NCBI GenBank assembly: GCA_016235455.1
Contig: JACRKZ010000052.1
Coordinates: 1 to 25,172, forward strand
Reading direction: 5' to 3'
From: Armatimonadota bacterium
GTDB taxonomy: Bacteria; Armatimonadota; UBA10988
DNA: 25,172 bases
Under the pieces are notes generated by a model. That model was not told the origin of the DNA, searched no databases, and saw only the letters and a program-made list of their open reading frames with translations. This document shows positions 1 to 20,038 of this stretch, piece after piece. Each line of letters starts with the position of its first letter. The stretch's first letter is position 1. The position numbers were made by a program, and so were the translations under genes.

Positions 1-165
1 ACGGCCTTTGCGCTGGGCGTGGGCCTGTTGCTGAGCTACTACATCCTGTGGAACGCGACCTGCTTCCTGGGTGAAGGCGTGGCCTATCCCGGCCTCATCT
101 GTTGGAGCACCAACATCGCCGGTCTGGCCATTGGCACCTGGTTGGTGTCGCGCGTGCCCGATTAG
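1..165 (+). CDS. C-terminal fragment of a membrane permease, probably LptF/LptG (YjgP/YjgQ) family; 5' part lies outside the window
   Basis: Frame 1 is open from base 1 to TAG at 163-165 and reads TAFALGVGLLLSYYILWNATCFLGEGVAYPGLICWSTNIAGLAIGTWLVSRVPD*. Two hydrophobic segments with 'YY..' and 'P....W..N' resemble the LptF/G C-terminus. Confidence 0.6.
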   Translation, partial: TAFALGVGLLLSYYILWNATCFLGEGVAYPGLICWSTNIAGLAIGTWLVSRVPD

Positions 166-950
166 GGCGCGGCCAGCCGCAACGCGTAACGCGCGCGCCA
201 GGTCTGGCCAGCGGGCCAGCCGGGCGATTCGCCATCGAGCAGTCCGACAAACAGCGCGCCACTGCCGCCGGTGCCGACATGCAGGAACACATTCTGCAGC
301 GGACAGCCCTCCGCGCCGATGCCGGCGATGACCAGCCGGCGGCCATCGGCATAGAGCAGTTCCAGCTCCGGCCGCGCCGGGTCGAGCGGCGTCCTGGCCG
401 ACTCGAAGCAGCGGCCGTCGCGCGTGATGCGCTCGTTGATGCGACCTTCGACCGTCCAGGCCAGCCATTCGCTCAGCCCGGTCATCTGCGTCTGCGCGGC
501 CAGGAAGGCTGGGGTGCCCTTGAGCGCCACCGTCGGCGTCACGGCGACCTCCACGGCCAGCTCGGGCTTGTCACCCAGGCTGTAGCGCAGCGCGTAGCCA
601 ACGCTCGATGCTGCCGGCTCGCAGGCGGCGTCGGCATGGAACGTGCCCTCGACACGGACCCAGGTCTGGCCACCGTCCTGGCCCTGGGTCACCTTCGGTG
701 CGGCGTCACCAGCGCTACTCACCACGCCGCGCGGGGTGAACAGGCCCCAGTCAGTGTAGACCATGCCGCCGCCCGCATAGACACGGCCGTCGGCTCCGGC
801 CAGCCGGCCCAGCCAGCCGCCGCGCGCCAGGTCGATGGTGGCCGTCAGATGAGCGTTGGCCAGCGTGAGGGCGGTGGCCGAACCCTCGACCCGCGGTTGG
901 GCCTGGCAGCCAGCGACCGCCAGCAGGCAGCAGCAGAGGAGTTGCTTCAC
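162..950 (-). CDS. Hypothetical lipoprotein (262 aa), beta-rich; paralog of the C-terminal domains of the upstream GH13-like protein
   Basis: Signal MKQLLCCCLLAVAG-C has lipobox VAG^C. The GTG start overlaps the upstream TGA (GTGA, 947-950). It shares N.H..A.I....GG.L, YTD.GL and LQN.FL....LF motifs with the upstream C-terminal domain. Confidence 0.8.
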   Translation of the reverse strand: MKQLLCCCLLAVAGCQAQPRVEGSATALTLANAHLTATIDLARGGWLGRLAGADGRVYAGGGMVYTDWGLFTPRGVVSSAGDAAPKVTQGQDGGQTWVRVEGTFHADAACEPAASSVGYALRYSLGDKPELAVEVAVTPTVALKGTPAFLAAQTQMTGLSEWLAWTVEGRINERITRDGRCFESARTPLDPARPELELLYADGRRLVIAGIGAEGCPLQNVFLHVGTGGSGALFVGLLDGESPGWPAGQTWRARYALRLAAP

Positions 951-4537: not shown

Positions 4538-4587
4538 CCTGAACTCCGCTCTGCCTTTCGCCAACGGTGCAGCGGGTCCTGTCGGCC

Positions 4588-4616
4588 TTGCCGGGTGGAC
4601 GACCCAGTCGTAGAAT
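4588..4616 (+). promoter_or_regulatory. Sigma70-type promoter for ispG
   Basis: TTGCCG (4588-4593), 17-nt spacer, TAGAAT (4611-4616). Confidence 0.65.
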
Positions 4617-4658
4617 GCCCTGGTGATCGGCCCCGAGCGGGCATGGGAGATGCTGAGC

Positions 4659-5840
4659 ATGGAGCTGTACTATCCGCGGCGCAAGACGCGCGGAGTGCGC
4701 GTGGGCAACGTGACCATCGGTGGTGGCCACCCCGTGGTCGTGCAGTCGATGACGACGGCCCACACGCGCGACGTGGACGCGGTCGTGGACGAAGCGGTCA
4801 ACCTGTGGCGCGCCGGCTGCGAGATTGTGCGCGTCACGGCACCGACCATGGGCGATGCGATCGCCATCGGCCAGATCCGCGCGCGGCTCGACGAACTGGG
4901 CTGCACCGTGCCGCTCGCCGCCGATGTCCACCATGATGGCAGCAAGATCGCCGTTGAAGTGGCCAAGCATGTCGACAAGGTACGCATCAATCCCGGCCTG
5001 TTCGTGTTCCGCAAGCCCAGTGCCGATGCCGTCGACTATACGGAGGCCGAGCATCAGGCCGAGCTCGAGGCCATCGAAGACCAGCTCCTGCCGGTCATCG
5101 AGGCGTGCCGAGCCCGCGACATCGCCATGCGCATTGGCGTGAACCACGGCTCGCTGGCGCAGCGCATGCTGGTCACCTACGGCGACACACCCGAGGGCAT
5201 GGTCGCTTCCGCCATGGAGTTCCTGCGGCTGTGCGAGAAGCACGACTACCGCAACCTGGTCATCTCGCTCAAGGCCTCGCGCGTGCCGGTCATGTTGGCG
5301 GCCTACCGGCTGATGGCCTCGACCATGGATGCGGCGGGCATGGACTATCCGCTGCACCTGGGCGTCACCGAGGCGGGCGACCGCGACTATGCCCGCATCA
5401 AGTCCGCCATCGGCATCGGCACGCTGCTGGCCGAGGGCATCGGTGACACCATCCGCGTCTCGCTTTCCGAGCCGCCAGTCAACGAGATCCCGGTGTGCTA
5501 CGAGATCCTGCAGGGCCTGGGCCTGCGCAAGACGAAGACCGAGTACATTGCCTGCCCTAGCTGTGGCCGCACCTACTTCGACCTGCCCACGGTGCTCAAC
5601 CAGGTACGCGATGCCACCGAGCACCTGGCCGGCATCGACATCGCTGTCATGGGCTGCATCGTCAATGGACCCGGTGAGATGGCCGACGCCGACTACGGCT
5701 ATGTGGGCAAGGGCGAGGGGAAGATCGCGCTGTACCGCGGCCGCGACATGGTCAAGACGGGCATCCCAGAAGCGCGAGGCGTCGCTGAGCTGATCTCGCT
5801 GCTCAAGGCCGACGGCGTGTGGAACGAGCCCGAGGGGTAG
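4659..5840 (+). CDS. ispG: (E)-4-hydroxy-3-methylbut-2-enyl-diphosphate synthase (IspG/GcpE), MEP pathway
   Basis: Motifs [54 protein letters not shown], 4Fe-4S ligands CPSCGR and [10 protein letters not shown]. Start is uncertain (GTG 4623, ATG 4650 or ATG 4659); 4659 has GGGAG at suitable spacing. Confidence 0.97.
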
Positions 5841-5865
5841 GTCCTCACCGCTGGCTTGGGCAGTG

Positions 5866-5914
5866 CCCAAATACGAGAGGGCTCGTCCAGCGGACGAGCC
5901 CTCTCGTATTTGGG
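5866..5914. terminator. Perfect 23-bp hairpin between convergent ispG and S8 protease genes; probable bidirectional terminator
   Basis: CCCAAATACGAGAGGGCTCGTCC (5866-5888), loop AGC, GGACGAGCCCTCTCGTATTTGGG (5892-5914). Confidence 0.85.
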
Positions 5915-5928
5915 GTGAGGTGCGTGCG

Positions 5929-8900
5929 CTAGCGCAGCCGCACCGTGCGCACCGCGCGGACCGTGTCGCCTTGGTCGTTGCGCGCGATGAGCGTCACGTT
6001 GTAGACGCCGGCGGGCAGCGGCCGGCCGGCGTTGTCCAGGCCGTTCCAGACGATGCGCGTCGGGCCATCGCCCTGCACCGGCGCCGTCTGGGCTACCAGC
6101 CGACCGGTCAGGCTGGCGACCTGCACGATCAACTCAGCCGGGGCGCTGAGCGTGACGTCGAACTCGGTGGAGCCGCCGCGCGTGGTGGTGGGCTGGAAGC
6201 TCTGCACCGCCAGCGCGCCGGCCGCGCGCGGCGCCACCGACAGAACCAGTTCGCGGTCGCTGTTGACCACATAAGAGCCCGTGGTGTTGAGCGCCACGAC
6301 GCGCCCGGAGGTCGGGTCGATGAGGCGAGCGCGGTAGCCGGCCGGCAACTGGCGGAGCAGGCTGGGCCAACTCAGGGTCACCTGGCGGCCGTTGCTGCCG
6401 CTGACCTTGAGCCGCCACGTGGCCTCGTTGACCACCGCGCCTCCGACGAAGTCAGCTGCGGCGCGGCTGCCATCGGCGGCGAGCACCTCGAGCATCACGC
6501 CGCCCGCGGCACCAGCAGGCGCCGGCGGGCGCACGCTGCGCAGCGCCGCCGACTGAGCGCCAACGATGACCCGTGAAGTCTCTTCACCCGCGGCGGCCAC
6601 CAGCGAGAAGCCGAAGTTGCTCGCACTGGTCGGCGCAGCGGCACGAGCCACCGAGCCGGGCGCCACGACGATGCGCACGTTGGCGGTGCGAGTGCGCCAG
6701 AAGGCACCCTCGAAGACCTCCAACTGGGAGCGCACGCCGTCAGCACCGGCCATGTTCGGGTCCATCACCAGTTCGTAGGTGTGACCGTTGAAAGCCCACA
6801 GGAACGGGTCGACGATGGACCAGTTGGCCTGCGTGCGCAGGTCGCCCTGGTCGACGCCGTTGACGTAGACGCGCACATCCTGCATGCGGAACGCCAGAGG
6901 CTGGTCCGGCCGCGGGTTGCCAATGAGATGGTAAGCCGCCTTGGCCATATCGAACTGGTAGGTCGGCTGCGCCGAGGCGCTGGTGTTCCAGGTGCCGTAG
7001 AGGCGGATGGAGCCTGGCACCGTGGTCTGCAGGAACCAGCCCTTGCCGGGCGCGATGTTGAAGAACGAGCTCGGCGCCGCGGGGTCGAAGGCCTGGTAGG
7101 CCATCAGATCCTCGTTGTAGCCAGCCAGGCGCGTCGGCTTGGGGGCCACATTGAAGTTGGCGATCTGCTCGGACGAGTTAGGCACGGTGATGGGGAAGGT
7201 GGTCAGGTACAGACCCGGCACCGGCAGCGTGATATCCATGACTCGCAGGAACGTGACGGTCACGCTGTTCGAGACCGCCTCGCCGTCGACGTTGCCACGG
7301 AAAACCACCGGCCCATCGACAGAGCGATGCGCGCGGAAGATGGCCTGGCCGTTGGCGTCCGAGGGCGTGGTCGGCGGCGTGATGGTCAAGCCGTCGTTGT
7401 TGTCGGCCGTGACCGTCAGGCGCGCTGCGGCGATGCCGGCCAAAGCCTGACCAGCCGAGTCGCGCACCGTGAGGGTCAGTACCACATCCGTGGCACCGTC
7501 CGCGGGCAGGTCGTTACCCGACGCAGTCAGCCCGGACATACCGGCGACGGCCAGGATATCGTAGAGCACCGTGCCGTTGAGCCCGACCGTCACCGTGAAC
7601 GAACGCGTGCCCTGGGCCACTAGCGTGGGGCTGCCCTTGCTGCGCTCGGAGAAGCCGATGAGGCTACCGACGTCGGCCCAGTTGGACCACGTGCCGTAAG
7701 CATCCACCGGCGTGGTGGCCTGGCTGACGCCGTAGAGCATGTGGTTCGTGACCGTCACGGGGTTGTTGCGCGTGGCGCCGCTCAGCGTGATGGTGGGTCG
7801 GATCTGCTGGTAGTAGGTCGGCGAGAGTTCGCGGTTGGCCAGCGTCACGGTGAAGTTGACCGGCGTGTCGTTGAACAGGAGCCAGCGCTGGTCGGCGGTC
7901 GTGCCGGCGGTGCGGGCCGAGTAGGTCAGGGTGCTGCCGGCGTCGACCCAGGCGCGGACCGGGGTGGCCGCGACGGCAACACTGGCCGCCTGGCCCAGGG
8001 ACACATACGAGACCGTCGCCTCGTTGCCCGTGGTGAGCGGCGCGGCGTCGGCGGGCACCTGGGTGCTCAGCGATGCGCTGACCTGGTTGTAGTAGTCGAA
8101 CGACAGACTGGCATCCGATGAGCCGACAGTGACCGAGTTCTGCTGGCCCGGGGCGATTTGCCAACGGCTCTGGGTGCTGCCGGCGCTGTCGGTGGTGCTG
8201 ACGCTGAGGGTGCTGCCAGCATCGCACAGCACCGTCTTCGGCGTGCCGTCCCAGACGTTTGTCGTGTGGGAGGTGCCGCCGAGGACGGAGGTGATGACCA
8301 CGGCATTGGTGTCGTCCATCAGACGACCGCCGACCGACGGGCCGTTGAGCGTGTTGACCGAAACGGTGATGCGCGGGCCGGTGACCGCGGCGCTGGCCGC
8401 GGCATACGCGTCCAAGCGACCATAACCGTAGCGGTTGCTATGGCCGTTCACGTCGTAAGCGCCGGCGGCGCTGTCGATCTTGACGGCGGTGTTCTCGAGC
8501 AACGCCATGGCCTGGGCCGAGGTCAGCGACGGGTTGACCGAGAGGGCCAGGGCGGCCACGCCCGCGGCCAGCGGGCAGGCGGCGGACGTGCCGCTGAAGT
8601 CGATGCCGGTGGTGTAGTTGGAGGCCGTGTAGCCACTGGCGCCCACGTTGTCCGTGGTCAGGATGCTGTGCTCGGGAACATCATCGCCCGAGCCGCCCGG
8701 CGCGACGCAGTCCAAGCTGGTGCCGGTCTCACTGAAGGACGACTTGGTGTCGTTCCAGGTGCTGGCGCCGACATTCAGCACCTGCGGATTGGAGGCGTAG
8801 CCGTCGTCGTCGGTGCTGTCGATGGGCGAGCCGTTGCCGGACGCCCAGGTGACCACGCAACCGAGCCCGCCACGGCCGTTGGTGACGGCGTTGTCGATGG

Positions 8901-10053
8901 CGGCAGCGGTGAGCGCGGGCAGTGGCGAGACGATGCCATAGCCGTCGGTTGGGCCCCAACTGTTGGAGATGACATCCGCGCCGTTGTCGGTGGCGAAGGT
9001 GAAGGCCTCCGCTTCGATGCTGACCGTCATGGCCATGCCGAGCATGCGGATGGGGATGAGCTGGCACGACGGAGCGATACCGGACACACCGATGCCGTTC
9101 TGCGCCGCGGCGGCGATGCCGGCGCAGGCGGTGCCGTGCATGTCGCCGGTCTCGGGGCTGGGGTCGCCGTCGTTGTCGAGGACGTCGCGCATGGCGGCGA
9201 ACTTCGTGGCCGCCGGCTGGAAGTCAGGGTGCCGGAGATCGCAGCCATCGTCGAGGATAGCGATCTTGATGGAGCCGCCGGTGGTCAGATCCCAGGCGCG
9301 CTTGGCGTTGACATCGGCCCCCACCGTGCCGCCCGGGACCGAGCCGACCCGGCCGGTGTTGTTCAGGTGCCACTGACGCGGGAACAGCGGGTCGGTGGGC
9401 GTCAGCCGCGAGGCCAGGGGGGCGGCCGCCGATCGTTCCAGGCCGCGGGCCCGCATGCTACGCAGCAGGTCGGGCTCGGAAAAGATGGTCTGCTCGTTCT
9501 CGTACAAGCGGTTGGCGACAGACACGCCGGTCTGGGTGGCCAGGTCGTTGACCGCGCAAAGGTAAGCGCCCGGCAGCCAGCGGTAGGCTTCCAGCACGTG
9601 GAACCCGTAGGTGCGCTGGAGTTCGGCCAACACGGCGGGCGAGGGGGTCGAGCGGAAGCGCACCACGAACTGACCCAGGTCCACCTGCATGGCGGGGCCT
9701 TGGCCGTACGTGGGCAGCAGTACCTGGGTCGCGGTGTCCTTGCCGACCTGGGCCGACAGTGAGGCCACGGCGCCCGCGCTACGCGTCGGCGCGGCCAGCA
9801 CGGCCACGTTGTAGCGCTTGAGATAGGTCGACTGCGTGCTGTTGTAGTTGGCGCGCAGCCGCGGCATGGCGCGTGATGCACCAGCACCAGCGGCATTGAG
9901 CTTCACACCCACGAACTGGTCCGACGGCACCAACGGGATACGTTGGCCCTTGTTCCAGTAATAGGTGTCCAGTGACCAGCCCGGCAGGGCAGTCATGGCC
10001 AGCAAGCCGACAACCCAGGCCAGCAGCGGAAAACGAACCTTGGATGACAGCAT
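5929..10053 (-). CDS. Secreted S8 (subtilisin/kexin-like) serine protease with tandem beta-repeats, Ig-like (Big_1-like) domain and FlgD-Ig-like C-terminus (~1374 aa)
   Basis: Signal peptide from ATG 10053 (MLSSKVRFPLLAWVVGLLAMTALPGWS). Catalytic triad ILDDG / HGTACAG / GTSAACP; oxyanion ASGNG; DPLF..QWHL.N. LPADG...V.LTLTVRD is Ig-like. C-terminus has WNGLDNAGRPLPAGVY. Confidence 0.9.
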   Translation of the reverse strand: MLSSKVRFPLLAWVVGLLAMTALPGWSLDTYYWNKGQRIPLVPSDQFVGVKLNAAGAGASRAMPRLRANYNSTQSTYLKRYNVAVLAAPTRSAGAVASLSAQVGKDTATQVLLPTYGQGPAMQVDLGQFVVRFRSTPSPAVLAELQRTYGFHVLEAYRWLPGAYLCAVNDLATQTGVSVANRLYENEQTIFSEPDLLRSMRARGLERSAAAPLASRLTPTDPLFPRQWHLNNTGRVGSVPGGTVGADVNAKRAWDLTTGGSIKIAILDDGCDLRHPDFQPAATKFAAMRDVLDNDGDPSPETGDMHGTACAGIAAAAQNGIGVSGIAPSCQLIPIRMLGMAMTVSIEAEAFTFATDNGADVISNSWGPTDGYGIVSPLPALTAAAIDNAVTNGRGGLGCVVTWASGNGSPIDSTDDDGYASNPQVLNVGASTWNDTKSSFSETGTSLDCVAPGGSGDDVPEHSILTTDNVGASGYTASNYTTGIDFSGTSAACPLAAGVAALALSVNPSLTSAQAMALLENTAVKIDSAAGAYDVNGHSNRYGYGRLDAYAAASAAVTGPRITVSVNTLNGPSVGGRLMDDTNAVVITSVLGGTSHTTNVWDGTPKTVLCDAGSTLSVSTTDSAGSTQSRWQIAPGQQNSVTVGSSDASLSFDYYNQVSASLSTQVPADAAPLTTGNEATVSYVSLGQAASVAVAATPVRAWVDAGSTLTYSARTAGTTADQRWLLFNDTPVNFTVTLANRELSPTYYQQIRPTITLSGATRNNPVTVTNHMLYGVSQATTPVDAYGTWSNWADVGSLIGFSERSKGSPTLVAQGTRSFTVTVGLNGTVLYDILAVAGMSGLTASGNDLPADGATDVVLTLTVRDSAGQALAGIAAARLTVTADNNDGLTITPPTTPSDANGQAIFRAHRSVDGPVVFRGNVDGEAVSNSVTVTFLRVMDITLPVPGLYLTTFPITVPNSSEQIANFNVAPKPTRLAGYNEDLMAYQAFDPAAPSSFFNIAPGKGWFLQTTVPGSIRLYGTWNTSASAQPTYQFDMAKAAYHLIGNPRPDQPLAFRMQDVRVYVNGVDQGDLRTQANWSIVDPFLWAFNGHTYELVMDPNMAGADGVRSQLEVFEGAFWRTRTANVRIVVAPGSVARAAAPTSASNFGFSLVAAAGEETSRVIVGAQSAALRSVRPPAPAGAAGGVMLEVLAADGSRAAADFVGGAVVNEATWRLKVSGSNGRQVTLSWPSLLRQLPAGYRARLIDPTSGRVVALNTTGSYVVNSDRELVLSVAPRAAGALAVQSFQPTTTRGGSTEFDVTLSAPAELIVQVASLTGRLVAQTAPVQGDGPTRIVWNGLDNAGRPLPAGVYNVTLIARNDQGDTVRAVRTVRLR

Positions 10054-10288
10054 CTTCAACCCCCGCCCAGCGGTCTGCTCGACGCTATCCGTCGGCCCCG
10101 CTACGGCGCGCATGTTGTTTCAGACACCGGGAGGCAACGAGAAGGGCGCGTTCTCTCGATGCCAAGCCGAAATCGACCCTACCGGGGGAGCCAGGTCGAC
10201 TCGTACTCGCCTGCCACCCGTCCAGCACCAGTACCGGCCCGCGGGCCAATGGCGCGCAGACTCGCAGCCACCAAAGATGGCACACGTC

Positions 10289-10666: not shown

Positions 10667-11344
10667 ATGAACCAACCCTTCTCGCCAGGCTGTGTCCGTC
10701 GGTTGGACCACGCCAACCTCGTGGTGCGCGATCTTGTCGCCGCCACCGCCTTCTACCGCGACCGGCTCGGACTGCGGCCCGTGCTGGAGCGCCGCCTGCA
10801 GGACTCCTGGATCGGTCAGGTGGTGGGCCTGCCCGGGGCCGTGATGGACTGCGTCATCCTGGAGGCGCCCGACGGCGGGGCTCGCCTCGAGCTGCTGTCC
10901 TACGTGCGGCCCGAGCCTTTCGTCGCCGGCGACGTCAGCGCTCCGCACGCGTTCGGGCTGCGCCACGTGGCCTTCGACGTGGACGATCTCGACGCGGTAT
11001 GGCGGCGCTTGAGCGAGTCTGGCGTCACACTGCTCTCAGAGCCGGTTGAGGTACCGTTCCCGGTGGCTGGCCGGCGCAAGCGCCTGGCCTACCTGCTGGA
11101 CCCCGAGGGCGTGCTGCTGGAACTGGCCGAATACAGCGAGATGACCATGGAACAGACGATCAAGGTGCCCGACATGATGTGTGCCGCGTGCGCGGCGAAG
11201 ATCGAGGCGGCGCTGCGCGCCGTGGCCGGTGTGGAGGCGGTGGTGTGCACACCGCCGACCAAGACCGTTAAGGTCACCGGCCAGGCCGGTGTGGAGGCCA
11301 TCGTCGCGGCCATCCGCGGGGCGGGCTTCAGCCCCACCGAGTGA
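10667..11344 (+). CDS. VOC (glyoxalase/bleomycin-resistance/epimerase) family protein fused to a C-terminal heavy-metal-associated (HMA/CopZ-like) domain
   Basis: VOC motifs LDHANLVVRDL....AFY..LGL, LELL, GLRHVAFDVDDL, DPEG..LELAE. These continue in frame into MEQTIKVPDMMCAAC..KIE.AL..V.GV (MxCxxC HMA motif). Confidence 0.8.
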   Translation: MNQPFSPGCVRRLDHANLVVRDLVAATAFYRDRLGLRPVLERRLQDSWIGQVVGLPGAVMDCVILEAPDGGARLELLSYVRPEPFVAGDVSAPHAFGLRHVAFDVDDLDAVWRRLSESGVTLLSEPVEVPFPVAGRRKRLAYLLDPEGVLLELAEYSEMTMEQTIKVPDMMCAACAAKIEAALRAVAGVEAVVCTPPTKTVKVTGQAGVEAIVAAIRGAGFSPTE

Positions 11345-11392: not shown

Positions 11393-11421
11393 TTGACAGA
11401 AACGCGCCGGGTCGGTATCAT
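11393..11421 (+). promoter_or_regulatory. Sigma70-type promoter of tRNA-Val (probably also rpsR)
   Basis: TTGACA (11393-11398), 17-nt spacer, TATCAT (11416-11421). Confidence 0.8.
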
Positions 11422-11598: not shown

Positions 11599-11820
11599 AT
11601 GGGCAAGCGATACGGCCGCCGTGGCGCGCCGGTGGTGATGGATCCGGACAACGAGCTGGACTACAAGAATCATGGTCTTTTGGTCAGGTTTCTGACCGAG
11701 CGTGGCAAGATCTTGCCGCGCCGCCAGACTGGTCTCAGCGCCCGCTACCAGCGTCTGCTTACGCAGGCCATCAAGCGCGCTCGCGACATCGGTCTGCTGC
11801 CGTATCAGCGCGAGGACTAG
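11599..11820 (+). CDS. rpsR: 30S ribosomal protein S18 (cysteine-free form)
   Basis: [22 protein letters not shown]....QR.L..AIKRAR..GLLPY; RBS GAGGAG at 11585-11590 before ATG 11599. Confidence 0.95.
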
Positions 11821-11908: not shown

Positions 11909-13444
11909 GTGAGTCGATCAGGCGCGGGCTCGCTGGCGGCGATGGCGGCTGGCTCCGGCCAGCGGGTCATGCTGCGCGGGCCGGCCGTGACCGACTACCT
12001 GGTGGGCAGCCTGCTGTTCTGCGCGCGCCACCCCGATGACCTGGCTGAACTGGCGCCGCGCGCGCTCGGCTGGTATCGGCATCTCTGCGCTCACGATATC
12101 CGCCTGCCGCTCGGTGTGGTGCTCGATCTGGGCTACATGCTGCTGTCGGGTGACGACTTCCGTTTCCGTGACTACTTCGCCGACCGCCGCCTGAGTCGCG
12201 CCGAGCAGGTGCTGCGTGAGCAGTACGAGCAGCGTGTGCTGCTCCGTCGACTGCAGGAGTCGGCCTTTGCTCGGCTGTCGAGTCTGCTGCGCGGGCAGCG
12301 CGAGCAGGACGAGGCGCTGGCCTTGGTGCTCGAGATCCTGCTGCGGCCCATCGCGGCGCGGCTCAGCCAGCGGTACGAGTTCGACCTCGGCGCCGTGGGC
12401 GACCTCGACGTGCAGCCGCGGCGGCTGGCCGACCGGCTGGCTCTGTTCGAGTCGACCGTGGAGCGGCCGGGGGTGGTACTCGGGCAGGTGGAAGAGGTGG
12501 TTCGCGCCGCCGGCCTGCTCGACCTCGACCAGCGGCTGGCCGACGAGGACTTCTACGAGATTGAGCACATCCGTGTCTTCCCGCGCGCCAGCCTGCGCGA
12601 AGTGGCGCGCGGCATCAAGCGCGCCGAACGCGTGCTGGGCAGCCTGCCGCGCATCGACGCCCGCGGCCTGCGCGAGCGGGCGCTGGCGCGCACCAACCTG
12701 AGCAGCGTAGGCACCTATCCCGTGGGCGGCATCGCCGAGATCAGCACACGCGGCCCTATCGAGAACCTGGTGCCCTCGGAGTTGCTCTATCTCGAGCGCG
12801 GTCGTGAGCTGGACCTGTTCAGCCTGCGCTACGCGGAGAACGAACTGCTGCGCTGGTTGCGCGACGGCGCGGTGCTGCATCTCATGCGGCGCACGATGGT
12901 CTTCTACCTGGACGAGTCGGACGCGCTGTTGGGCCCGGTGACCGTGGGCGACGCCGAGCGTGGCCTGCGCGGCGTGAAGCTGCTGCGCTGCGTGTTAGGC
13001 TTGGTGCTGTCGCTGGTGAGTGATCTGGTGCGAGTCTTCGCGCATGACGACGTGCGTTTCGAGTTGCGGCTGGTGCAGCCCGAGGGCGCGGCCGCCGCGC
13101 TCGGTGCCGAGCGACGTGAGGTGGCCGAGGTGCTGCGGCTGCTGCTGGCCGACCGCGAAGCCGCTGGTATGGCTACGGTGACTGTCGATCAGGGGTCGCT
13201 GGCGGACCTGATTGCCGCGCGCCGTGCCGACACCAGCCGGGCAGTGACCATCGTCGGCCTGGCGCCGCGTGAGCAGCTAGTGGGGCTGGACGGGCTGCGC
13301 CTCAACCACGGGCAGCGTCTGGTGATGCAACCGATCCGGGTCGGCAACGAGCCGGCGACCGACGGCGCGATCGACTTCACGCTGGACCCGATCGCCAGCC
13401 TGCGGGCAGCGCGCGCGCGGCTGCTGGGGAGGATGTTCGCCTGA
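11909..13444 (+). CDS. Divergent vWA-type protein resembling the vWA component of MoxR-vWA ternary systems (~511 aa)
   Basis: GTG 11909 with RBS GGGAGG. Conserved-looking block YPVGGIAEISTRGPIENLVPSELLYLE...DLFSLRYAENELLRWLRD, followed by strand MVFYLDESD (degenerate MIDAS position). Family assignment is from recollection. Confidence 0.6.
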   Translation: MSRSGAGSLAAMAAGSGQRVMLRGPAVTDYLVGSLLFCARHPDDLAELAPRALGWYRHLCAHDIRLPLGVVLDLGYMLLSGDDFRFRDYFADRRLSRAEQVLREQYEQRVLLRRLQESAFARLSSLLRGQREQDEALALVLEILLRPIAARLSQRYEFDLGAVGDLDVQPRRLADRLALFESTVERPGVVLGQVEEVVRAAGLLDLDQRLADEDFYEIEHIRVFPRASLREVARGIKRAERVLGSLPRIDARGLRERALARTNLSSVGTYPVGGIAEISTRGPIENLVPSELLYLERGRELDLFSLRYAENELLRWLRDGAVLHLMRRTMVFYLDESDALLGPVTVGDAERGLRGVKLLRCVLGLVLSLVSDLVRVFAHDDVRFELRLVQPEGAAAALGAERREVAEVLRLLLADREAAGMATVTVDQGSLADLIAARRADTSRAVTIVGLAPREQLVGLDGLRLNHGQRLVMQPIRVGNEPATDGAIDFTLDPIASLRAARARLLGRMFA

Positions 13445-14748
13445 TGCCCGACCTCTACTTCGCCAGCACCGAGGAGCTTGTGGCTGGGCTGAGCCTGATC
13501 AGTGATCCGGCGGCCTGGCAGCGCCCGGCGCGGAGGGTGCAGTTGCTGGGTCCCGAGGGTCAGACGGCCTGGGTCATCCAGAGCGAGACGCCGGTGCCTG
13601 GTGCAGGCGCCTCGGTGGGCGCGTTGAGTCGCGAGGGTGAGCGCATCGTCGTGCGTACCCGAGAGGCCGAGCGCGTCTACGGCGTGGCGGAAGTGCGCGA
13701 TCTGGCGGCGCTGGGCCAAGCGGTGCCGTTGGCGCCGCGCCGTGGTGAGCCGGCCTCGACGACCTATGTCGAGATCTCTGATGGGCAACGCTTCCGCGAG
13801 GCCATCCGCCAGAACCTGATGCTGGGCAACGATCAGATCGGCGTGCTGGTGGTGGCTGGCGGGCGCGCCTTGCTGCGCGTGGAGCGGCTCAGCGGCTTTC
13901 TGCGCGAGGCGTGGTTGGCCGATCCTGCGCTGACCCTCTATCAGCCTTCGACCGAGCAGCCGCGGCTGCTGCTGCCTTGGGGCTGGGACCATCCGCTGGC
14001 CCGGCACGTCAGGGTCGCCGGCGACCGCGACTTCTGGCTGGTCGACAAGCAAGGCGCGTGGAACCGGGTGAGCGGCGGGTTCCGCGATGTCTATGACCAC
14101 CTCAGCCTCGACCCTGAGGGCCTGCGCACGGAGACCTGGACGGCAGCCACGGCGCTGCCGCGGGTGCAGGTAGCGCTGCGGCTGGAGCCCACCGATTCTG
14201 CTGACCGGCCCACGCTGTGGCGGCTGGCTCCGGCGGATCGACCGGCCCTCGACCGCCTGCTGAGCGAGTCGGCCGAGAGCGAACTGGCCACGCTCCAGGC
14301 CGCCTGCCTGGACGTGGGTGATCGCGGTGAGCCGACCATCTTCATTTGTGAGCGACCCGGCACCACCAACCGCATGCCCCCGCCGATCACCGGTGGCCAG
14401 GCCTTCGTCGGTCGCCTCGCCACCGAGCACTTGTACGTGCCCGTGGGGCTCAGGCTGGCACCGTTCCTGTCGCGTCGTGGCCTGGTGGAGACGCTCTGCC
14501 TGGCCGACGACCACCTGACGCTGGTTGAGCCCGGCGAGGGCGAGACCATCCGCCTGCTGCGCGTGCCACGCTCGGCTTTGAGGCCCGTGGTGGACCTCGT
14601 CGACTACCTCGTGGCCGAGGCCGAGACCGAGGTGGCATCGCTCCTGGACACCGTGCGCGTGGATCTGGACCTGGATGCCGCGCCCGACGACTCGAGCAAG
14701 GGCGGCGATGGTCGGCGCAGCCTGTGGCAGCGCCTGCTTCACCGCTGA
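13444..14748 (+). CDS. Hypothetical protein (434 aa), translationally coupled to the vWA-like gene; resembles the FtsH-ternary-system 'X7'-type accessory protein
   Basis: TGATG overlap at 13442-13446. Motifs L.LGND.....ALLRV, PWGWDHPL, LYVPVG.RL.P. Family resemblance is recalled, not searched. Confidence 0.6.
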   Translation: MPDLYFASTEELVAGLSLISDPAAWQRPARRVQLLGPEGQTAWVIQSETPVPGAGASVGALSREGERIVVRTREAERVYGVAEVRDLAALGQAVPLAPRRGEPASTTYVEISDGQRFREAIRQNLMLGNDQIGVLVVAGGRALLRVERLSGFLREAWLADPALTLYQPSTEQPRLLLPWGWDHPLARHVRVAGDRDFWLVDKQGAWNRVSGGFRDVYDHLSLDPEGLRTETWTAATALPRVQVALRLEPTDSADRPTLWRLAPADRPALDRLLSESAESELATLQAACLDVGDRGEPTIFICERPGTTNRMPPPITGGQAFVGRLATEHLYVPVGLRLAPFLSRRGLVETLCLADDHLTLVEPGEGETIRLLRVPRSALRPVVDLVDYLVAEAETEVASLLDTVRVDLDLDAAPDDSSKGGDGRRSLWQRLLHR

Positions 14749-15851
14749 AGCCAGCGCTCGATGGCTCGCGCCAGGCCACGCCCGAAGGCGCGCGCCTTGT
14801 CCGGCGTCACCTCCTGCCCGTCGACCACCGCATAGGGGAACTCCAATGCGGTGGCGGTGACGGTGTCCGAGAGCGACGCCGCCCAGCGGGCGAACGAGCG
14901 GCCGTCGGTGGTGTTGGCGTCGGTGTTCCAGGCCGTGCCATACGGCAGGTTGCGTGCGGCGGAGTAGGGTAGCGGCCCGTGGTCCGTGCCCTCCAGCTGG
15001 GCGGCGAGGGCCAGTGCGCGCCGCCAGTTGTCCTGCTCTGGCCCGCCGACGAAGTACGGATGCTCGTTCCATTCACCGCGGATCCAGGGGCAATGGAGAT
15101 CGAGTGCCAGCCGCAGCCGGCCGGCCGACCAGGCCGGCACCTCGGCCATCAGCGACTTGACCGCGGCGTAGCGCGCGCGCTCGTCGTAGTCGCGGTTGTG
15201 GTCGCGCGGGCGACGGTTCTTGCCCTGGTCTCCCTGCTCCACGCCGTCCTTGTCCACGAAAGGCACCACCATGGCCTCGACGTTCAGAGCGCACCACGGC
15301 GAGGCCAGCAAGCCGTCGACCACACCCTCCAACATGTAGCTGGCCATGGCCTCGCAGCAGTGGTGCCGCGCGGTGAACAACAGGCGATGCGGCGCCGTGC
15401 CATCCAGACGACCAAGGCGCAGTCGCTCCACCGGCCGGTCGTGCTCGCTGCGGCACAGCGTCTCGACTACCCAGCCGGGCCGCCCGCTGCGGCCCGCGAC
15501 GAAGGCCTGCCAGTCGGCCTGCAGGTAGGGAATGTGCATGGCGAAGCGCACGTCGGGCGAGTCGGGCACGTGGTACCGGAACGACTGGCCATTGACGGCC
15601 TCGGCGCCCAGCCAGCGCCAGGTGGCGCCGGCGTCGTCACTGACCGCCGGGCCGCGGCCGGCCAGCGGGTTGCTGCCAGTGAACGTGATGTGGACGTCGC
15701 GGCCCTGGGCGTCACGCAGGCGGAAGGCCCAGTAGAACCAGTCGGTCGTGGTGTCGCGCAGGTCCTGGCGCACGCGGGCGGTGGTCTCGGTGGTCTGCTC
15801 GACGACGATGTTGCCGCCAGGGAAGTCGGCGTCGATGGCCAAGGGCAGCAT
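14739..15851 (-). CDS. M14 family zinc carboxypeptidase, cytosolic-carboxypeptidase-like (~370 aa)
   Basis: ATG 15851 with AGGAG RBS. N-domain motifs DFPGGN and WFYWAF; zinc motif ARHHCCE (HxxE); DHNRDY; LDLHCP; ALEFP. No signal peptide. Confidence 0.8.
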   Translation of the reverse strand: MLPLAIDADFPGGNIVVEQTTETTARVRQDLRDTTTDWFYWAFRLRDAQGRDVHITFTGSNPLAGRGPAVSDDAGATWRWLGAEAVNGQSFRYHVPDSPDVRFAMHIPYLQADWQAFVAGRSGRPGWVVETLCRSEHDRPVERLRLGRLDGTAPHRLLFTARHHCCEAMASYMLEGVVDGLLASPWCALNVEAMVVPFVDKDGVEQGDQGKNRRPRDHNRDYDERARYAAVKSLMAEVPAWSAGRLRLALDLHCPWIRGEWNEHPYFVGGPEQDNWRRALALAAQLEGTDHGPLPYSAARNLPYGTAWNTDANTTDGRSFARWAASLSDTVTATALEFPYAVVDGQEVTPDKARAFGRGLARAIERWLQR

Positions 15852-15862
15852 GGCGGGCTCCT

Positions 15863-18118
15863 CTAGCGCGTCTGGACATCCCAGATCGAGCGGCCGAAGG
15901 CGGTCAGATCGGCACTCCATTGGCCGATCCAGCGGTCCAGATGGGCCTGTAGCCGCGCCGGCGGCAGCACATCGGCGATGGCTTCCACGCGGTGCAGGGC
16001 CTCGGCGTCGATGCGCGCGTTGCCGGACAGCCGCCTGAGCAGGCCCGCTTCCACGGCTTCGAGCCAGCGCGACTCCGGCCGCGTCAGCGTGGTCCGCAAG
16101 GCAACCAGGGCGGGTCCCAGTCGAGCCGGCGGCAGGGCCATCATGGCGTCGAGCGCGCGGCGCGCCTCGGGCCGACCGGGCCGCTCCTCGATGCGGTCGA
16201 CGGCATAGGCCAGCACCAGCCAGGCCGCCACGGCGCGTTCGTCGCCACCAGACGCGCCGTCTCTGGCGCTGCCCTTGGCGCCACGGCGCAGCGGGTCGAG
16301 CAGCGGGCGCAGGACCACCTCGTCGCCAGGCCGCGCGGCGCTGGCCAGCGCCGCCGCTGTCCAGTGCCAGGTCTCCAGGCTGTCGGCCCACAGCTTCTCG
16401 GCGGCGGCGGCCATGGCCACGACGTTGCGCTCGCCCCAGCCGGCCAGGAAGCGGCTCGGCCAGGTGTTGCTCAGCGCCGCCAGTTGCCGCCGCAGCTCGT
16501 CACGCGCGGGCCCGGCGGGCTGCGCGCTGACGGCCAGCAGCGTCTCGCTCAGTGCCGCGCCGTCGCGCGAGTCGATGGCCGCGGCGACGGCCAGGTTGAG
16601 GATGGCCGCGGCGTTGGCGCCGAGGTCGGGGCGGCGTGTCTCGGTCAGCCAACCGGACACGAACGAGGCCAGCCGCGCGCGCGCCGCGCCGGGGTCGAGC
16701 CGGCGGGCCAGGTCGGCCGCTTCGGTCCACAGCCTGATGGCCTGCGGCGGATCCACCGGCGCCCAGGCCCGGCCCACGGCCTCCAAGGCTGGTGCCAGCG
16801 TGGCCTCGTCGGGCAGCAGACGCACAATGCGCTCGAGATCGCAGCGCAGGTCGGCCAGGCGCGGGTCCGTCTCCTCGCCGAGTGCCTCGCCAATGACCAC
16901 CAACCCCGCCGACACGTGGCCGGGCGACTTCATCGGTGCGAGGATGGCCAGCAGTTCGGAGATGGCCGAGCGCGAGCGCTTGGCCCGGGGCCAGAGGCGT
17001 GCGCGGATCTGGGCCTGCACAATGGCCGGCGACTGGTCGCCCGCGATGCGGCCGCTGACCGGCTCGGCGGTGAGTTCCAGCAGCTTGTCGGCCATGCTCA
17101 GCAGGTCGCCCGAATCGGACAGCGCATAGACCGGCAGCGAGGCGCGGTGGCGTACCGGCGGATCCACATAGACCCACGGCTCCATGCCCAGCGCCGCGCG
17201 CCAGCGCGGCGGCACGTGGTCCACCCAGCTCTCGCCGTCGTCGGCGTAAGTGGAGTCCGGCTCGGCCAGGGGGTTGTCGCCCGAGCGGTAGCCGGCCCAG
17301 CCGTCGCGCAACTGGCGCGCGAACGCCAGGTCGGGCTCGACGGCGCCCGCCAGGCGGTCGCGCTGGCGGCTGGCCTCCTCGCGGTCGCCGGTGACGGCCA
17401 GCAACTCGCGCCACAGCACCAGCTCCACCGTGCGCGGCAGCCCGGCCCGCGCGAGCAGCTGGTACAACTCCGCCACCTGGCCCGGCGCCAACACCTCGGC
17501 ATTGAGGGCCAGCGCGGTGAGGCCGTGAGGTCGCAGCGCGCGGCCAGGCACCCAGGCGTCGTGCTCGGTGCCCATGGCCTGTTCGGCCAGGGTCAGCAAC
17601 TGGTCGGGCTCGATGGCACCCACCCGTAGCGCCTCGGCGCCGGCGCGAATGGCGCCATCGACTTCGCCGATGGAGAGCAGGCTCTCGCTCAGCCCCCACC
17701 ATGAGCCACTGCCGCAGCCTTCGATGCTCAGCAGGCGCAGCCAGTCCGCGCGCGAGCCCTTGCCGGTGCCGCTGTCGCGCAGCACGCGGCGCAGGCGGTC
17801 GGCCTCGGCGCGCAACTGCTCGGGCGCGAAGGACTGGTGGATGCGGCGCAAGCGCTCGGTGACGCGTTCGGCGACCAGGTTGTGCGCGGCGGCCAGTTGC
17901 CGGCGGAGCGACTGCGACTGCTTGCGTCGCCGCGCCGAGCCGCTGCCCAGTTCCGCGCCCCAGAACAGCAGCGGCACGGCCGTCAGCGTGATGCTGCCCC
18001 AGCAGACCGCGCGGTAGCCGGCGGGCACCAGCGGAGCAATGCCCAGCAGCATCGTCGCGGCGAAGATGAGCCAGGCCGCGGCGAAGAGGGCAAAGGGCTG
18101 AGCTTGACGCGACGGCAC
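15863..18118 (-). CDS. Hypothetical membrane-anchored protein (~751 aa): two N-terminal TM helices plus a long Ala/Leu/Arg-rich alpha-helical (TPR/HEAT-like) region
   Basis: GTG 18118 preceded by AGGAG. Hydrophobic segments FALFAAAWLIFAATMLLGIAPLV and AVCWGSITLTAVPLLFWG. Fits between neighbours with 19- and 11-nt gaps. Confidence 0.65.
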   Translation of the reverse strand: MPSRQAQPFALFAAAWLIFAATMLLGIAPLVPAGYRAVCWGSITLTAVPLLFWGAELGSGSARRRKQSQSLRRQLAAAHNLVAERVTERLRRIHQSFAPEQLRAEADRLRRVLRDSGTGKGSRADWLRLLSIEGCGSGSWWGLSESLLSIGEVDGAIRAGAEALRVGAIEPDQLLTLAEQAMGTEHDAWVPGRALRPHGLTALALNAEVLAPGQVAELYQLLARAGLPRTVELVLWRELLAVTGDREEASRQRDRLAGAVEPDLAFARQLRDGWAGYRSGDNPLAEPDSTYADDGESWVDHVPPRWRAALGMEPWVYVDPPVRHRASLPVYALSDSGDLLSMADKLLELTAEPVSGRIAGDQSPAIVQAQIRARLWPRAKRSRSAISELLAILAPMKSPGHVSAGLVVIGEALGEETDPRLADLRCDLERIVRLLPDEATLAPALEAVGRAWAPVDPPQAIRLWTEAADLARRLDPGAARARLASFVSGWLTETRRPDLGANAAAILNLAVAAAIDSRDGAALSETLLAVSAQPAGPARDELRRQLAALSNTWPSRFLAGWGERNVVAMAAAAEKLWADSLETWHWTAAALASAARPGDEVVLRPLLDPLRRGAKGSARDGASGGDERAVAAWLVLAYAVDRIEERPGRPEARRALDAMMALPPARLGPALVALRTTLTRPESRWLEAVEAGLLRRLSGNARIDAEALHRVEAIADVLPPARLQAHLDRWIGQWSADLTAFGRSIWDVQTR

Positions 18119-18137
18119 CGGACTCTCCTGGATCTTG

Positions 18138-19115
18138 TCAGCCGACCCGCAGCATCTGTTCGACGCGCTCGCGCACCAGAGCAAAGCGCTCCTCATCCTC
18201 ACCCAGATGGCAGAGCAGGCGCAGATCCTCGCGTCGCACCTCGCCGCCATGGGCCAGGAAGGCGCGCGTGCGCAGCAGTCGATAGAGCTTGATGACTTTG
18301 CGGTCGCTCACGGCGGCCAGTTCCTCGGCCTCCAGGCCGGCCAGAATGCGCCGGAACAGATCGAACACATCGGGCGGGAACCAGCGCGTCAGGCCGAGAC
18401 CGGCGGCGGCGTCGTTCTCCTGGTAGTCCAGGAAACGCCGCACCGCCACGAAGTCGTCCAACGACGCCACGCCGGCCCACGGTTGTTGGTTGAGCGCCCG
18501 GTACGTCTCATTGGCCAACCCGGCAGTGACCAGCGCCTCGAACCGAGCCGAGCGCACACTGCGGCTTTCGACCTTCAGCACGAACCGGTCGCGCAGGGCG
18601 TCCATCTCCTCGTAGCTGGCCACCGAGTTGGTGGCGCCGAACAACATCACCAGCGGCACTGTCACCGGCTTGCCGTCCTGGTAGTACTTGCGCTCGTTGA
18701 GTACGGTCAACAGCGTGTTGAGGATGGCCGAGTTGGACTTGAAGATCTCATCGAGGAAGACCACGCGCGCCGTAGGGATCTTGCCTTCCACCCGACGGAT
18801 GTAGTTGCCCTCGCGCAACTGGTTGATGTCGATGGGGCCGATGATCTCGCTGGGTTCGGTGAACCGTGTGAGCATGTATTCGAAGTAGTCGCCGTCGGGC
18901 AGCGACAGGGCCTGGACGAACTTCACCACCAGGTCCGACTTGGCCGTGCCCGGTGCGCCGACCAGCAGCAGCGGCTCCTGCGCGGTTGTGCAGAGCACCA
19001 TCAGGTCGATCAGTTCGTCTTTGTCCACGAAGTACCGCTTGAGCACCTCGCCGACGCGGTTGACCCGCTCGCGCGCTCCGTCCACCTGCGATCGCAGCGT
19101 CTCGAATTCGCTCAA
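18138..19115 (-). CDS. MoxR-family (RavA-like) AAA+ ATPase
   Basis: TTG start with GGAGGT RBS. Walker A GAPGTAKS, YFEYMLTRFTEPSEIIGP, Walker B VFLDEIFK, NTLLTVLNER, GATN, arginine finger LRDRF, sensor-2 SDR. Confidence 0.92.
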   Translation of the reverse strand: MSEFETLRSQVDGARERVNRVGEVLKRYFVDKDELIDLMVLCTTAQEPLLLVGAPGTAKSDLVVKFVQALSLPDGDYFEYMLTRFTEPSEIIGPIDINQLREGNYIRRVEGKIPTARVVFLDEIFKSNSAILNTLLTVLNERKYYQDGKPVTVPLVMLFGATNSVASYEEMDALRDRFVLKVESRSVRSARFEALVTAGLANETYRALNQQPWAGVASLDDFVAVRRFLDYQENDAAAGLGLTRWFPPDVFDLFRRILAGLEAEELAAVSDRKVIKLYRLLRTRAFLAHGGEVRREDLRLLCHLGEDEERFALVRERVEQMLRVG

Positions 19116-19134
19116 CCGGGCACCTCCACGGTCA

Positions 19135-20013
19135 CTATGGTACGCGCCAGAACGTGACGAGCCGGCTCACGCGGCGCGACTTCTCGCCCCAGCGCTTGAA
19201 CGCTCGCCAGGCCAGGAAGCCGGGCGGACCCCAGACCACCGCGGGCTCGGCGACCTGTGTCCAGCCCAGCCGCGTGCAGAAGCCGGCCAGCGTGGCCGGC
19301 GTGAATAGCACGCGGTGCCAGATGGTCCAGTGTTTGCTGGTAGCGGCCAGTTGGTCTGGCGGGGCGCTGTGTCGGCGGCTCTCGGCGTCGGGGGTTTCCA
19401 CCATGATCAGCGCGCCCGGTCTGGCCACGCGCTGCATCTCGCTCAAGGCGCGGTAGGTCTGCATGTCATGCTCGATGACGTGCTTGGCATGCACCAGATC
19501 GAAACTGCCGTCGGCGAAGGGCAGGGCGGTCATCAGCGCCACATGCGCGTCCAGCCCCTGCTCTCGGGCCACCTTGACCACCGCCGGGGAAATGTCCACG
19601 CCGGCCGTGCGCCAGCCGCGCTGTGCACCGGCGGCGAGCATCGAGCCGTAGCTGCAGCCGATGTCGAGCAGCGCGCCACGGGCCGGCATCATGGCCTCCA
19701 GCACGCGGCAACGGTGGTGCGCCGTACGCAGCTTGCGGGCCAGATGCTTCTGGTACATGCCGGCGTAGGCGTATTCCTCGTCGGCCACCGCGGCATCGCC
19801 GCCGGTGGGATCCTGGGAGTTCCACAGCCCGCAGCGCGTGCAGTGGTACCAGCCCGGCGAACTGTGGCCATCGTCCTGCCGCAGCCGCGGGTAGGCCTGC
19901 CGGTCGGCACTGCCGCACCACGTGCATCGCTCGGCCGATACCGCCACCAGATCCGCGTCGATGGCCGGCGATTCAGGGTGCACTGGCGCGGGTGGGATGC
20001 GGTCAACGTCCAT
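19135..20013 (-). CDS. Class I SAM-dependent methyltransferase with an N-terminal CxxC..CxxC zinc ribbon
   Basis: CTWC...CTRCG; LLDIGCSYG (motif I); GVDIS; LPFADGSFDLV; HVIEH; RPG. ATG 20013 has a GGAGAG RBS. Confidence 0.85.
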   Translation of the reverse strand: MDVDRIPPAPVHPESPAIDADLVAVSAERCTWCGSADRQAYPRLRQDDGHSSPGWYHCTRCGLWNSQDPTGGDAAVADEEYAYAGMYQKHLARKLRTAHHRCRVLEAMMPARGALLDIGCSYGSMLAAGAQRGWRTAGVDISPAVVKVAREQGLDAHVALMTALPFADGSFDLVHAKHVIEHDMQTYRALSEMQRVARPGALIMVETPDAESRRHSAPPDQLAATSKHWTIWHRVLFTPATLAGFCTRLGWTQVAEPAVVWGPPGFLAWRAFKRWGEKSRRVSRLVTFWRVP

Positions 20014-20038
20014 CGAGCGGGCTCTCCAAGCCTCCATG

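Follow-up and report, generated by a model that had tools for sequence, protein, structure and literature searches.

A 25,172-nt stretch of contig JACRKZ010000052.1 from an Armatimonadota bacterium (hereafter, the window) contains six closely packed genes (11909-20037) that form two convergent operons. Four of them encode a MoxR AAA+ ATPase, a vWA protein of the ivWA type, an X7 protein that stands alone, and a helical protein with a membrane anchor, whose equivalent would be the C-terminal half of X7long, the longer X7 protein of related loci. It seems moderately likely that these four genes constitute a system, an Armatimonadota-like, lineage-specific rearrangement of the 'simple' type of FtsH-class MoxR-vWA ternary system, in which the FtsH-X5-X6 module is unlinked. 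The components of the locus truly belong to the FtsH-class family, yet the window contains no complete FtsH-class system. The other two genes, encoding a methyltransferase and an M14 carboxypeptidase, are operon neighbours of uncertain involvement, their part in the system being unproven.

The plus-strand operon starts with the vWA gene (11909-13444), whose GTG start codon is preceded by GGGAGG and whose 511-aa product consists of a probably helical N-terminal region followed by a divergent ivWA domain. The latter (residues 271-450) matches Pfam ivWA PF19997 (E 6.7e-16, 58.7 bits against a cut-off of 35), described in Pfam as 'vWA domain found in the FtsH ternary systems'. A hidden Markov model (HMM) of 24 vWA proteins from downstream of MoxR in related loci matches the protein with E 1.1e-74, and in a MAFFT alignment it is colinear with 22 vWA proteins of related loci. 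Tyr270, Pro271, Gly273, Gly274, Gly282, Glu285, Phe304, Glu312, Leu314, and Arg318 are invariant, as is Asp73 in the N-terminal region, and a partial metal ion-dependent adhesion site (MIDAS) is kept as Asp335-x-Ser337 (i.e., the first Asp and the Ser). The Pfam model ivWA-helical_N does not match the protein at E<=0.1; its residues ~20-270 are colinear, by tblastn and MAFFT, with proteins that do match this model, and Pro67, Tyr106, and Leu111 are at least 90% conserved in the same alignment, beside the invariant Asp73. Neither a C-terminal beta-propeller nor a repeat family is detected by Pfam (E<=0.1), and the protein ends at 511 aa. By its profile matches, it is a highly divergent member of the ivWA family.

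The second gene of the operon (13444-14748, +) has a start that shares 1 nt with the stop of the vWA gene and encodes a 434-aa protein matching Pfam fvmX7 PF20005 (E 2e-22, 80.3 bits against a cut-off of 24). An HMM built from the X7 proteins of canonical loci recognizes it with E 8.9e-51, and the conserved residues of the X7 family are present. In an hhalign comparison, residues 2-415 of the standalone X7 family align onto residues 23-427 of X7long with a probability of 99.9% (E 1e-35). Standalone X7 proteins form six clusters and measure 431-437 aa down to 42% identity; a search of the PDB with the X7 profile yielded nothing usable.

The MoxR gene (18138-19115) lies on the minus strand and encodes a 325-aa protein whose best Pfam model is bpMoxR PF20030 (E 2.3e-62), with further matches to AAA_5 and AAA_lid_8. 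Its P-loop GAPGTAKS (residues 53-60) and Walker B motif FLDE (at 120) are intact, and an HMM of MoxR proteins from canonical loci matches it with E 2.1e-154. A P-loop of the form GxxxTAKS is given as typical of FtsH- and beta-propeller-type MoxR-vWA systems in the text of Kaur et al. (2020, eLife, PMC7159879). The nearest solved relative is RavA (PDB ID: 3nbx and 6q7l; E 3.4e-32), and the closest MoxR proteins (69-93% identity), where a taxon is given, carry Armatimonadota names. In a maximum-likelihood tree with an arbitrary root, the protein falls in a clade of 15 Armatimonadota rows (SH-aLRT 99), which groups (SH-aLRT 91) with canonical Myxococcota loci (L002, L008, and L016) and with loci containing only a MoxR-vWA pair. 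A sequence-only reading of the stretch had proposed six genes with tight spacing, among them a MoxR ATPase and, from sequence motifs, an FtsH-type vWA protein and an X7 protein; the coordinates and a check of the reading frames uphold the gene set and the spacing, Pfam agrees with the vWA and X7 assignments, and the bpMoxR match and GxxxTAKS P-loop identify the ATPase as one of the ternary type.

The canonical arrangement of these components was derived from a scan of one-genome-per-species contigs with the MoxR alignment, which gave at least 80 loci among 600 stretches, one of them in-clade and 79 from outgroups. The outgroup loci encode MoxR proteins with 51-61% identity and belong almost entirely to Planctomycetota or Myxococcota; many are cut by contig ends. 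Their canonical operon reads fvmX6 - fvmX5 - FtsH-like protein (~720 aa, AAA and Peptidase_M41) - X7long - MoxR - vWA (ivWA-helical_N and ivWA). This order is confirmed by Pfam in L002 and L032; in L027, X6, X5, and X7long are found by Pfam, and FtsH and vWA are added by jackhmmer. Across the 79 outgroup loci, jackhmmer detects X7long in 44, vWA in 29, FtsH in 23, X5 in 18, and X6 in 16. Against this order the window is rearranged, as the sequence-only reading had supposed. The in-clade locus, L001, comes from an Armatimonadetes metagenome-assembled genome (MAG) and keeps the order secD-secF-kdsB-galK-methyltransferase-MoxR-751-aa homologue, with identities to the window of 61% for the methyltransferase, 79% for MoxR, and 50-54% for the 751-aa protein (tblastn and BLASTP).

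All 20 FtsH paralogues examined from canonical loci lack N-terminal transmembrane helices and contain an intact HExxH motif together with one Walker A motif (GPPGTGKT); in the two that were scanned with Pfam (L002 4000-6171 and L032 3952-6108), a Peptidase_M41 domain is present. Taken together, these features make the paralogues soluble AAA+/M41 zinc proteases. In the text of Kaur et al. (2020, PMC7159879), the third component of the FtsH class pairs one active AAA+ domain with one inactive one in a single protein, and the FtsH paralogue is described by its two AAA+ domains only. Some outgroup loci show further architectures. In L003 (9957-12218), an ivWA-type vWA protein ends in an FGE-sulfatase domain of the sulfatase-modifying-factor-like kind and could be a fusion with an effector or binding function. 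A Gemmataceae locus (L060) has tandem X7long paralogues (2-3541 and 3606-7169) upstream of MoxR. MoxR and ivWA genes also occur in MAGs assigned to Bifidobacterium breve (L048) and Chitinophaga (L058), the latter with X7long as well; both contigs are probably mis-binned and nest among Planctomycetota or Myxococcota sequences in the tree.

The fourth component is encoded directly after MoxR on the minus strand (15863-18118; GTG start after GGAGAG) and is 751 aa long. It has no match in Pfam, NCBIfam, PADLOC, PHROGs, or the PDB, and its family is rare: among 1.84 billion representatives searched, 14 match at E<=1e-3, of which 11 also pass E<=1e-10. The homologues measure 687-771 aa down to 31% identity, and all nine full-length members examined share a hairpin of two N-terminal hydrophobic helices. 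Given the basic stretch after the second transmembrane helix (TM2), the bulk of the protein should face the cytoplasm. TPR-like structural leads obtained for one homologue (P0008) all remained below 0.9, with a TM-score below 0.5, and are not used here.

Profile comparison links this family to X7long, the canonical protein of ~1100 aa with fvmX7 in its first ~420 residues and a helical C-terminal half of ~650 aa. An hhalign comparison aligns residues 127-519 of the 751-aa family onto residues 505-927 of X7long (score 54.5, P 3.5e-5), and a permissive setting (low mact) extends the match colinearly, from 93-761 onto 486-1132. A second comparison on fresh alignments scores 52.5 (P 5.9e-5), each half of the 751-aa family, when it is divided in two without shared members, finds the same X7long region (47.8 and 49.6), and the Myxococcota-type subset of X7long scores 54.0. 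The controls do not exceed 19.4: the reversed template scores 18.4, 40 column shuffles score at most 18.9, and the other families of the same loci (FtsH, X5, X6, vWA, and MoxR) score 14.5-19.4. In a MAFFT alignment of both families, Asp245 is invariant in 32 of 32 rows, and Trp140, Arg251, Ala514, Leu686, and Glu690 are at least 90% conserved. Three motifs occur in like order in the two families: W..LA...A..C..EA; GD..EA.RQR.RL, corresponding to GD.L.LARARDRLL; and RWL..VE..LL.R, corresponding to RRWLDEDE.LVRRRI.

The 751-aa protein is thus quite likely to be a remote homologue of the C-terminal half of X7long, as judged from these profile matches. Should this homology hold, the 434-aa X7 protein and the ~660 cytoplasmic residues of its partner would together reconstitute the canonical ~1100-aa protein, which appears to be split here into a soluble X7 protein and a membrane-anchored half. 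Fission is a simpler reading than fusion because the fused X7long is widespread. The proposal of the sequence-only reading that the two-helix membrane protein may act as a new third component is probably wrong: by the profile-profile match and the three motifs in colinear order, the protein corresponds to the X7long C-terminal half. In two outgroup loci (L021 6531-9933 and L038 6995-9876), X7long is present as two overlapping open reading frames on the same strand, which could represent a frameshift, an assembly error, or an independent split.

The window encodes no AAA+ or FtsH protein other than MoxR, and HMMs of FtsH (from 20 canonical loci), X5, and X6 give no matches at E<=1 in any of its six frames, which bears out the absence of an FtsH-like ATPase noted earlier from the sequence. 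Among the 44 outgroup loci with X7long, 19 contain FtsH, and six (L017, L020, L054, L057, L064, and L075) lack it despite at least 4 kb of upstream and at least 6 kb of downstream sequence; three others have no upstream FtsH and a short downstream flank, the flanks of seven are too short, and nine contain a partial X7long. As six of the 25 informative outgroup loci are without FtsH, its absence beside the core is not peculiar to the window. L017, for example, consists of an X7long-MoxR-vWA trio amid unrelated genes, L033 carries X6-X5-FtsH-X7long-MoxR with no adjacent vWA gene, and six of the 79 outgroup loci contain only a MoxR-vWA pair. In 15 more, mostly from Gemmataceae (e.g., L029, L034, and L050), a lone MoxR gene lies amid housekeeping genes. 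Components of the system seem to be often dispersed in these large genomes, and, judging by the gene content of the loci, the FtsH-X5-X6 module can probably be separated from the core.

The lack of FtsH, X5, and X6 in the window and its scrambled gene order relative to the canonical one could also mean that the locus is a decaying remnant, in which a complete FtsH-type system lost its FtsH-X5-X6 module, its X7 gene broke, and the remaining pieces are non-functional. This is very improbable, given that no stop interrupts any of the six reading frames and each has a plausible ribosome-binding site, that homologues keep the full-length split architecture down to 31-47% identity, and that the Walker A and Walker B motifs of MoxR and the conserved residues of vWA and X7 are preserved.

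Several observations weigh against reading the locus as a rearranged FtsH-class system with a split X7long. The relation between the 751-aa family and X7long is visible at the profile-profile level only (probability 65-72%), and the Planctomycetota subset of X7long on its own scores no more than 24.6 (P 0.13), although its register is the same. When HMMs are searched against single sequences, no match between the two families reaches significance (best E 0.0037 to 0.03); the noise level of these searches is shown by a top match with a value of 0.02, an unrelated amidohydrolase (L050 8175-9791). The tree being unrooted, the change may have been either a fission or a fusion. The vWA family profile matches no solved vWA structure in the PDB. 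FtsH, X5, and X6 may be encoded elsewhere in the genome, beyond the window. L001 is the one in-clade locus among the loci listed, and it ends inside the 751-aa gene, before any M14 gene. Outside the window, we infer the co-occurrence of vWA and X7 with the minus-strand operon from an X7 homologue (P0003) and an M14 homologue (P0143) whose contigs have the same length, 5466 nt. Finally, a conflict-system role for the class as a whole is a computational prediction.

The M14 gene (14739-15851, -) encodes a 370-aa protein related to bacterial CCP-like enzymes of known structure (PDB ID: 3k2k, 4b6z, and 4a37; E 3e-10 to 3e-6); with the further match 3l2n, the set spans E 3e-10 to 1.4e-3. The protein aligns from its residue 4 onto residue 22 onward of 3k2k. 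In Pfam it remains below the thresholds, with Pepdidase_M14_N (E 0.0059) as its only match and none to Peptidase_M14, a family (PF00246) that many of its homologues carry. The active site His164-Cys-Cys-Glu167, Asn219-Arg220, His253, and Glu337 is invariant in 16 diverse homologues, whose mean column identity is 61%. By these active-site residues and structural matches, the gene encodes an intact CCP-like M14 metallocarboxypeptidase. The family is very large, with 2704 homologues at E<=1e-10; among the matches listed, two are close (81% and 78% identity), followed by a plateau of 50-57% across phyla, with records from Armatimonadota, Sumerlaeia, Bryobacterales, Brocadiia, and Planctomycetaceae. 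None of the 80 fetched loci, including all 79 outgroup loci, contains an M14 homologue. Since the 751-aa and X7 families are rare by comparison, the M14 enzyme must mostly occur without the system; its family shows the pattern of a broadly conserved enzyme, and its membership in the system is unproven.

The methyltransferase gene (19135-20037, or starting at an internal ATG at 20013; -) encodes a 300-aa protein with the Rossmann-fold S-adenosylmethionine (SAM)-binding families Methyltransf_11, Methyltransf_23, and Methyltransf_25 (E 1.4e-19 to 2.9e-15, the lowest for Methyltransf_11). The protein has an N-terminal Cys4 motif, which is conserved in the L001 homologue (61% identity), whose gene occupies the same position there. 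No specific subfamily is reached at the NCBIfam cut-off, the matches in NCBIfam and the PDB being generic. A PADLOC match to mad2 covers the generic SAM domain only and was rejected. Homologues are absent from the 79 outgroup loci, except for one 45-aa match in L035 (E 7.6e-4) that is taken as noise. The protein is a generic class I SAM enzyme, and its membership in the system is likewise unproven.

All six genes could instead represent one new MoxR-vWA type, in which the M14 enzyme (as the effector) and the methyltransferase (as a modifier or regulator) replace FtsH-X5-X6. The minus-strand genes, in the order methyltransferase, MoxR, 751-aa protein, and M14, are separated by only 19, 19, and 11 nt, which suggests co-transcription, and the order of the first three recurs in L001. 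The X7 homologue P0003 (81%) and the M14 homologue P0143 (78%) each have a longest contig of 5466 nt and are probably encoded together. The canonical systems contain a zinc protease (with the M41 HExxH motif intact in 20 of 20 FtsH paralogues), and the M14 protein is likewise a zinc peptidase with an intact site. Nevertheless, this six-gene type is improbable: M14 and methyltransferase homologues are missing from all 79 outgroup loci, apart from the noise match in L035, and M14 has 2704 homologues versus 14 for the 751-aa protein and six clusters for X7, and so occurs mostly apart from the system. Moreover, the linkage is seen only in relatives close enough to share syntenic housekeeping flanks, so that synteny is uninformative on the function of the M14 enzyme and the methyltransferase. 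A weak further point is that no longest contig of the 20 MoxR clusters (at least 63%) equals in size any M14 contig among the best 120 of the 2704 homologues. Equally doubtful is a stronger form of the same idea, namely a fifth, membrane-tethered MoxR-vWA type confined to an Armatimonadota lineage, in which the M14 enzyme and a zinc-ribbon SAM methyltransferase replace the soluble FtsH/M41 module.

The sequence-only reading therefore stands for the ivWA, X7, and ternary-type MoxR components, for the missing FtsH, and for the rearranged order, and is not supported for the new third component, whether that is the two-helix membrane protein or the M14 peptidase. As an effector, the latter is not supported, being a member of a very large cross-phylum family that is absent from all 79 outgroup loci and is linked to the system only in syntenic near relatives. 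The methyltransferase-MoxR-751-aa order persists in L001, and homologues of M14, the 751-aa protein, and the methyltransferase are found in none of the 79 outgroup loci, the noise match in L035 aside.

The chromosomal setting bears on a further alternative. The locus sits between rpsR and galK in a window with a G+C content of ~70%. Its left flank comprises an amylase-like gene, ispG/gcpE, an S8 subtilase gene, tRNA-Pro, tRNA-Gly, a glyoxalase-HMA fusion, tRNA-Val, and rpsR, and its right flank comprises galK, kdsB, secF, and secD. An Rfam scan of the window detects only the three tRNAs, and neither mobile-element borders nor an integrase, significant repeats, or phage-family matches are found in it. 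With such neighbours, the locus might encode a housekeeping chaperone module for the assembly or quality control of a membrane or envelope complex, with the M14 and methyltransferase genes as ordinary metabolic neighbours. L001 keeps the same chromosomal position, none of the six proteins contains a toxin-like effector domain (Pfam, NCBIfam, and PADLOC), MoxR proteins of the family occur alone amid housekeeping genes in 15 of the 79 loci, and RavA-ViaA and similar MoxR-vWA pairs serve complex assembly, according to the text of Kaur et al. (2020, PMC7159879). Such a role is nonetheless unlikely. In the same text, the vWA, X7, and MoxR families are defined from conflict-type neighbourhoods; the 751-aa protein and X7 evolve fast in comparison with MoxR (in L001, about 50-54% versus 79% identity); and the rare, patchy distribution of X7 and the 751-aa protein is more in keeping with an accessory system than with a core role.

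The two operons meet tail to tail, the X7 and M14 reading frames overlapping by 10 nt at their 3' ends (14739-14748), and a promoter and terminator scan of the window finds no terminator-like site between them; transcripts of the two strands would be antisense to each other. Upstream of the locus, a lone rpsR gene (11599-11820, +; Ribosomal_S18, Pfam E 6.6e-24) follows tRNA-Val and precedes the vWA gene by 89 nt, and a near-consensus sigma-70-like site (11 of 12) is located at 11393-11421, ahead of tRNA-Val. Read-through from this tRNA-Val/rpsR housekeeping unit may transcribe the vWA-X7 operon. Two other flanking genes are unrelated to the locus: the 1394-aa S8 subtilase (5929-10113, -) carries Big_1 and FlgD-Ig domains, and the gene at 10667-11344 (+) encodes a glyoxalase fused to a heavy-metal-associated domain.

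If the four genes indeed form a rearranged FtsH-class system, its action could be modelled on characterized MoxR-vWA pairs and on the account of Kaur et al. (2020, PMC7159879), as far as its text goes. A MoxR hexamer, with the vWA protein as a co-chaperone, would use ATP to remodel or switch a scaffold in which X7 and the helical protein are combined, while the vWA protein would capture a peptide at its partial MIDAS. The inward-pointing basic stretch after TM2 would place the scaffold at the cytoplasmic face of the inner membrane, where the ATP-dependent switch might gate a downstream output. In the canonical conserved set (X6, X5, FtsH, X7long, MoxR, and vWA), the sole enzyme is the soluble FtsH-like AAA+/M41 protease. 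It may be speculated that the cell's own membrane FtsH, brought close by the membrane anchor, takes over the protease role, or that the co-transcribed M14 carboxypeptidase acts on the captured peptide.

MoxR-vWA ternary systems are known from comparative genomics only, and no bench study of the FtsH class was found in a literature search. Among the papers listed, the same search retrieved no described link of MoxR or vWA proteins with M14 or other carboxypeptidases and no described MoxR-vWA system in Armatimonadetes. The locus and its relatives suggest a constant core of MoxR, ivWA, X7, and the helical C-terminal half. A natural split of X7 would mark a domain boundary and provide interaction and structural studies with a pair of smaller pieces that can be expressed separately, and the added membrane anchor predicts the site at which the complex acts. 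Should the M14 enzyme or the methyltransferase belong to the system, a new effector logic for this class would follow; in the case of the fifth type, the output would be C-terminal trimming and/or methylation of the vWA-captured peptide at the inner membrane, and not AAA+ proteolysis.

Among known systems, the M14 protein most resembles the CCP-like enzymes (PDB ID: 3k2k, 4b6z, and 4a37; Rimsa et al. 2014, PMC3940198): the N-terminal and M14 domains are both present, and the HxxE, NR, H, and E residues are kept, whereas in sequence it resembles the solved enzymes only weakly (best E 3e-10). The RavA-ViaA pair of Escherichia coli includes the closest solved relative of the MoxR protein and follows the same logic of an AAA+ ATPase with a vWA co-chaperone; RavA, however, is ~500 aa long with extra C-terminal domains, its partners and genomic context are unrelated, and the MoxR protein of the window scores 132 bits against the NCBIfam RavA model, far under the 681-bit cut-off. 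To our knowledge, no physiological substrate has been established for the bacterial CCP-like M14 enzymes.

The beta-propeller class, as described in the text of Kaur et al. (PMC7159879), shares with the window bpMoxR as the best Pfam model, the lack of FtsH, and a membrane-spanning helical-repeat third component. Unlike in that class, the vWA protein of the window matches ivWA and has no C-terminal beta-propeller, the 751-aa protein has no beta-propeller or bpX match, and fvmX7 marks the FtsH class. The 'simple' FtsH-class type (Kaur et al. 2020, eLife, PMC7159879) is the closest counterpart, as its text gives a GxxxTAKS MoxR protein, an ivWA domain behind a long helical N-terminal region (in the window, a probable one), and an fvmX7 protein; by profile comparison, the helical C-terminal half of the X7 protein is shared too. 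Armatimonadota are not among the phyla named for the FtsH class in that text, and its supplementary CSV file contains neither 'Armatimonad' nor 'FtsH' as a term. No prior description of the arrangement seen here was found in the literature search, and the Figure 1-source data of Kaur et al. may already show split X7 forms. The window differs from the FtsH class in having no gene for an FtsH-like AAA+/M41 protein, fvmX5, or fvmX6, in the methyltransferase and M14 peptidase genes that flank the MoxR operon, and in the placement of vWA-X7 and MoxR in convergent operons instead of the order X7long-MoxR-vWA. It differs further in its standalone 434-aa X7 protein, the presumed other half of which has a two-helix membrane anchor and is encoded after MoxR on the other strand. 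If the homology of the 751-aa protein to X7long is true, the novelty of the locus would thus lie in the split and the membrane anchor rather than in a new component.

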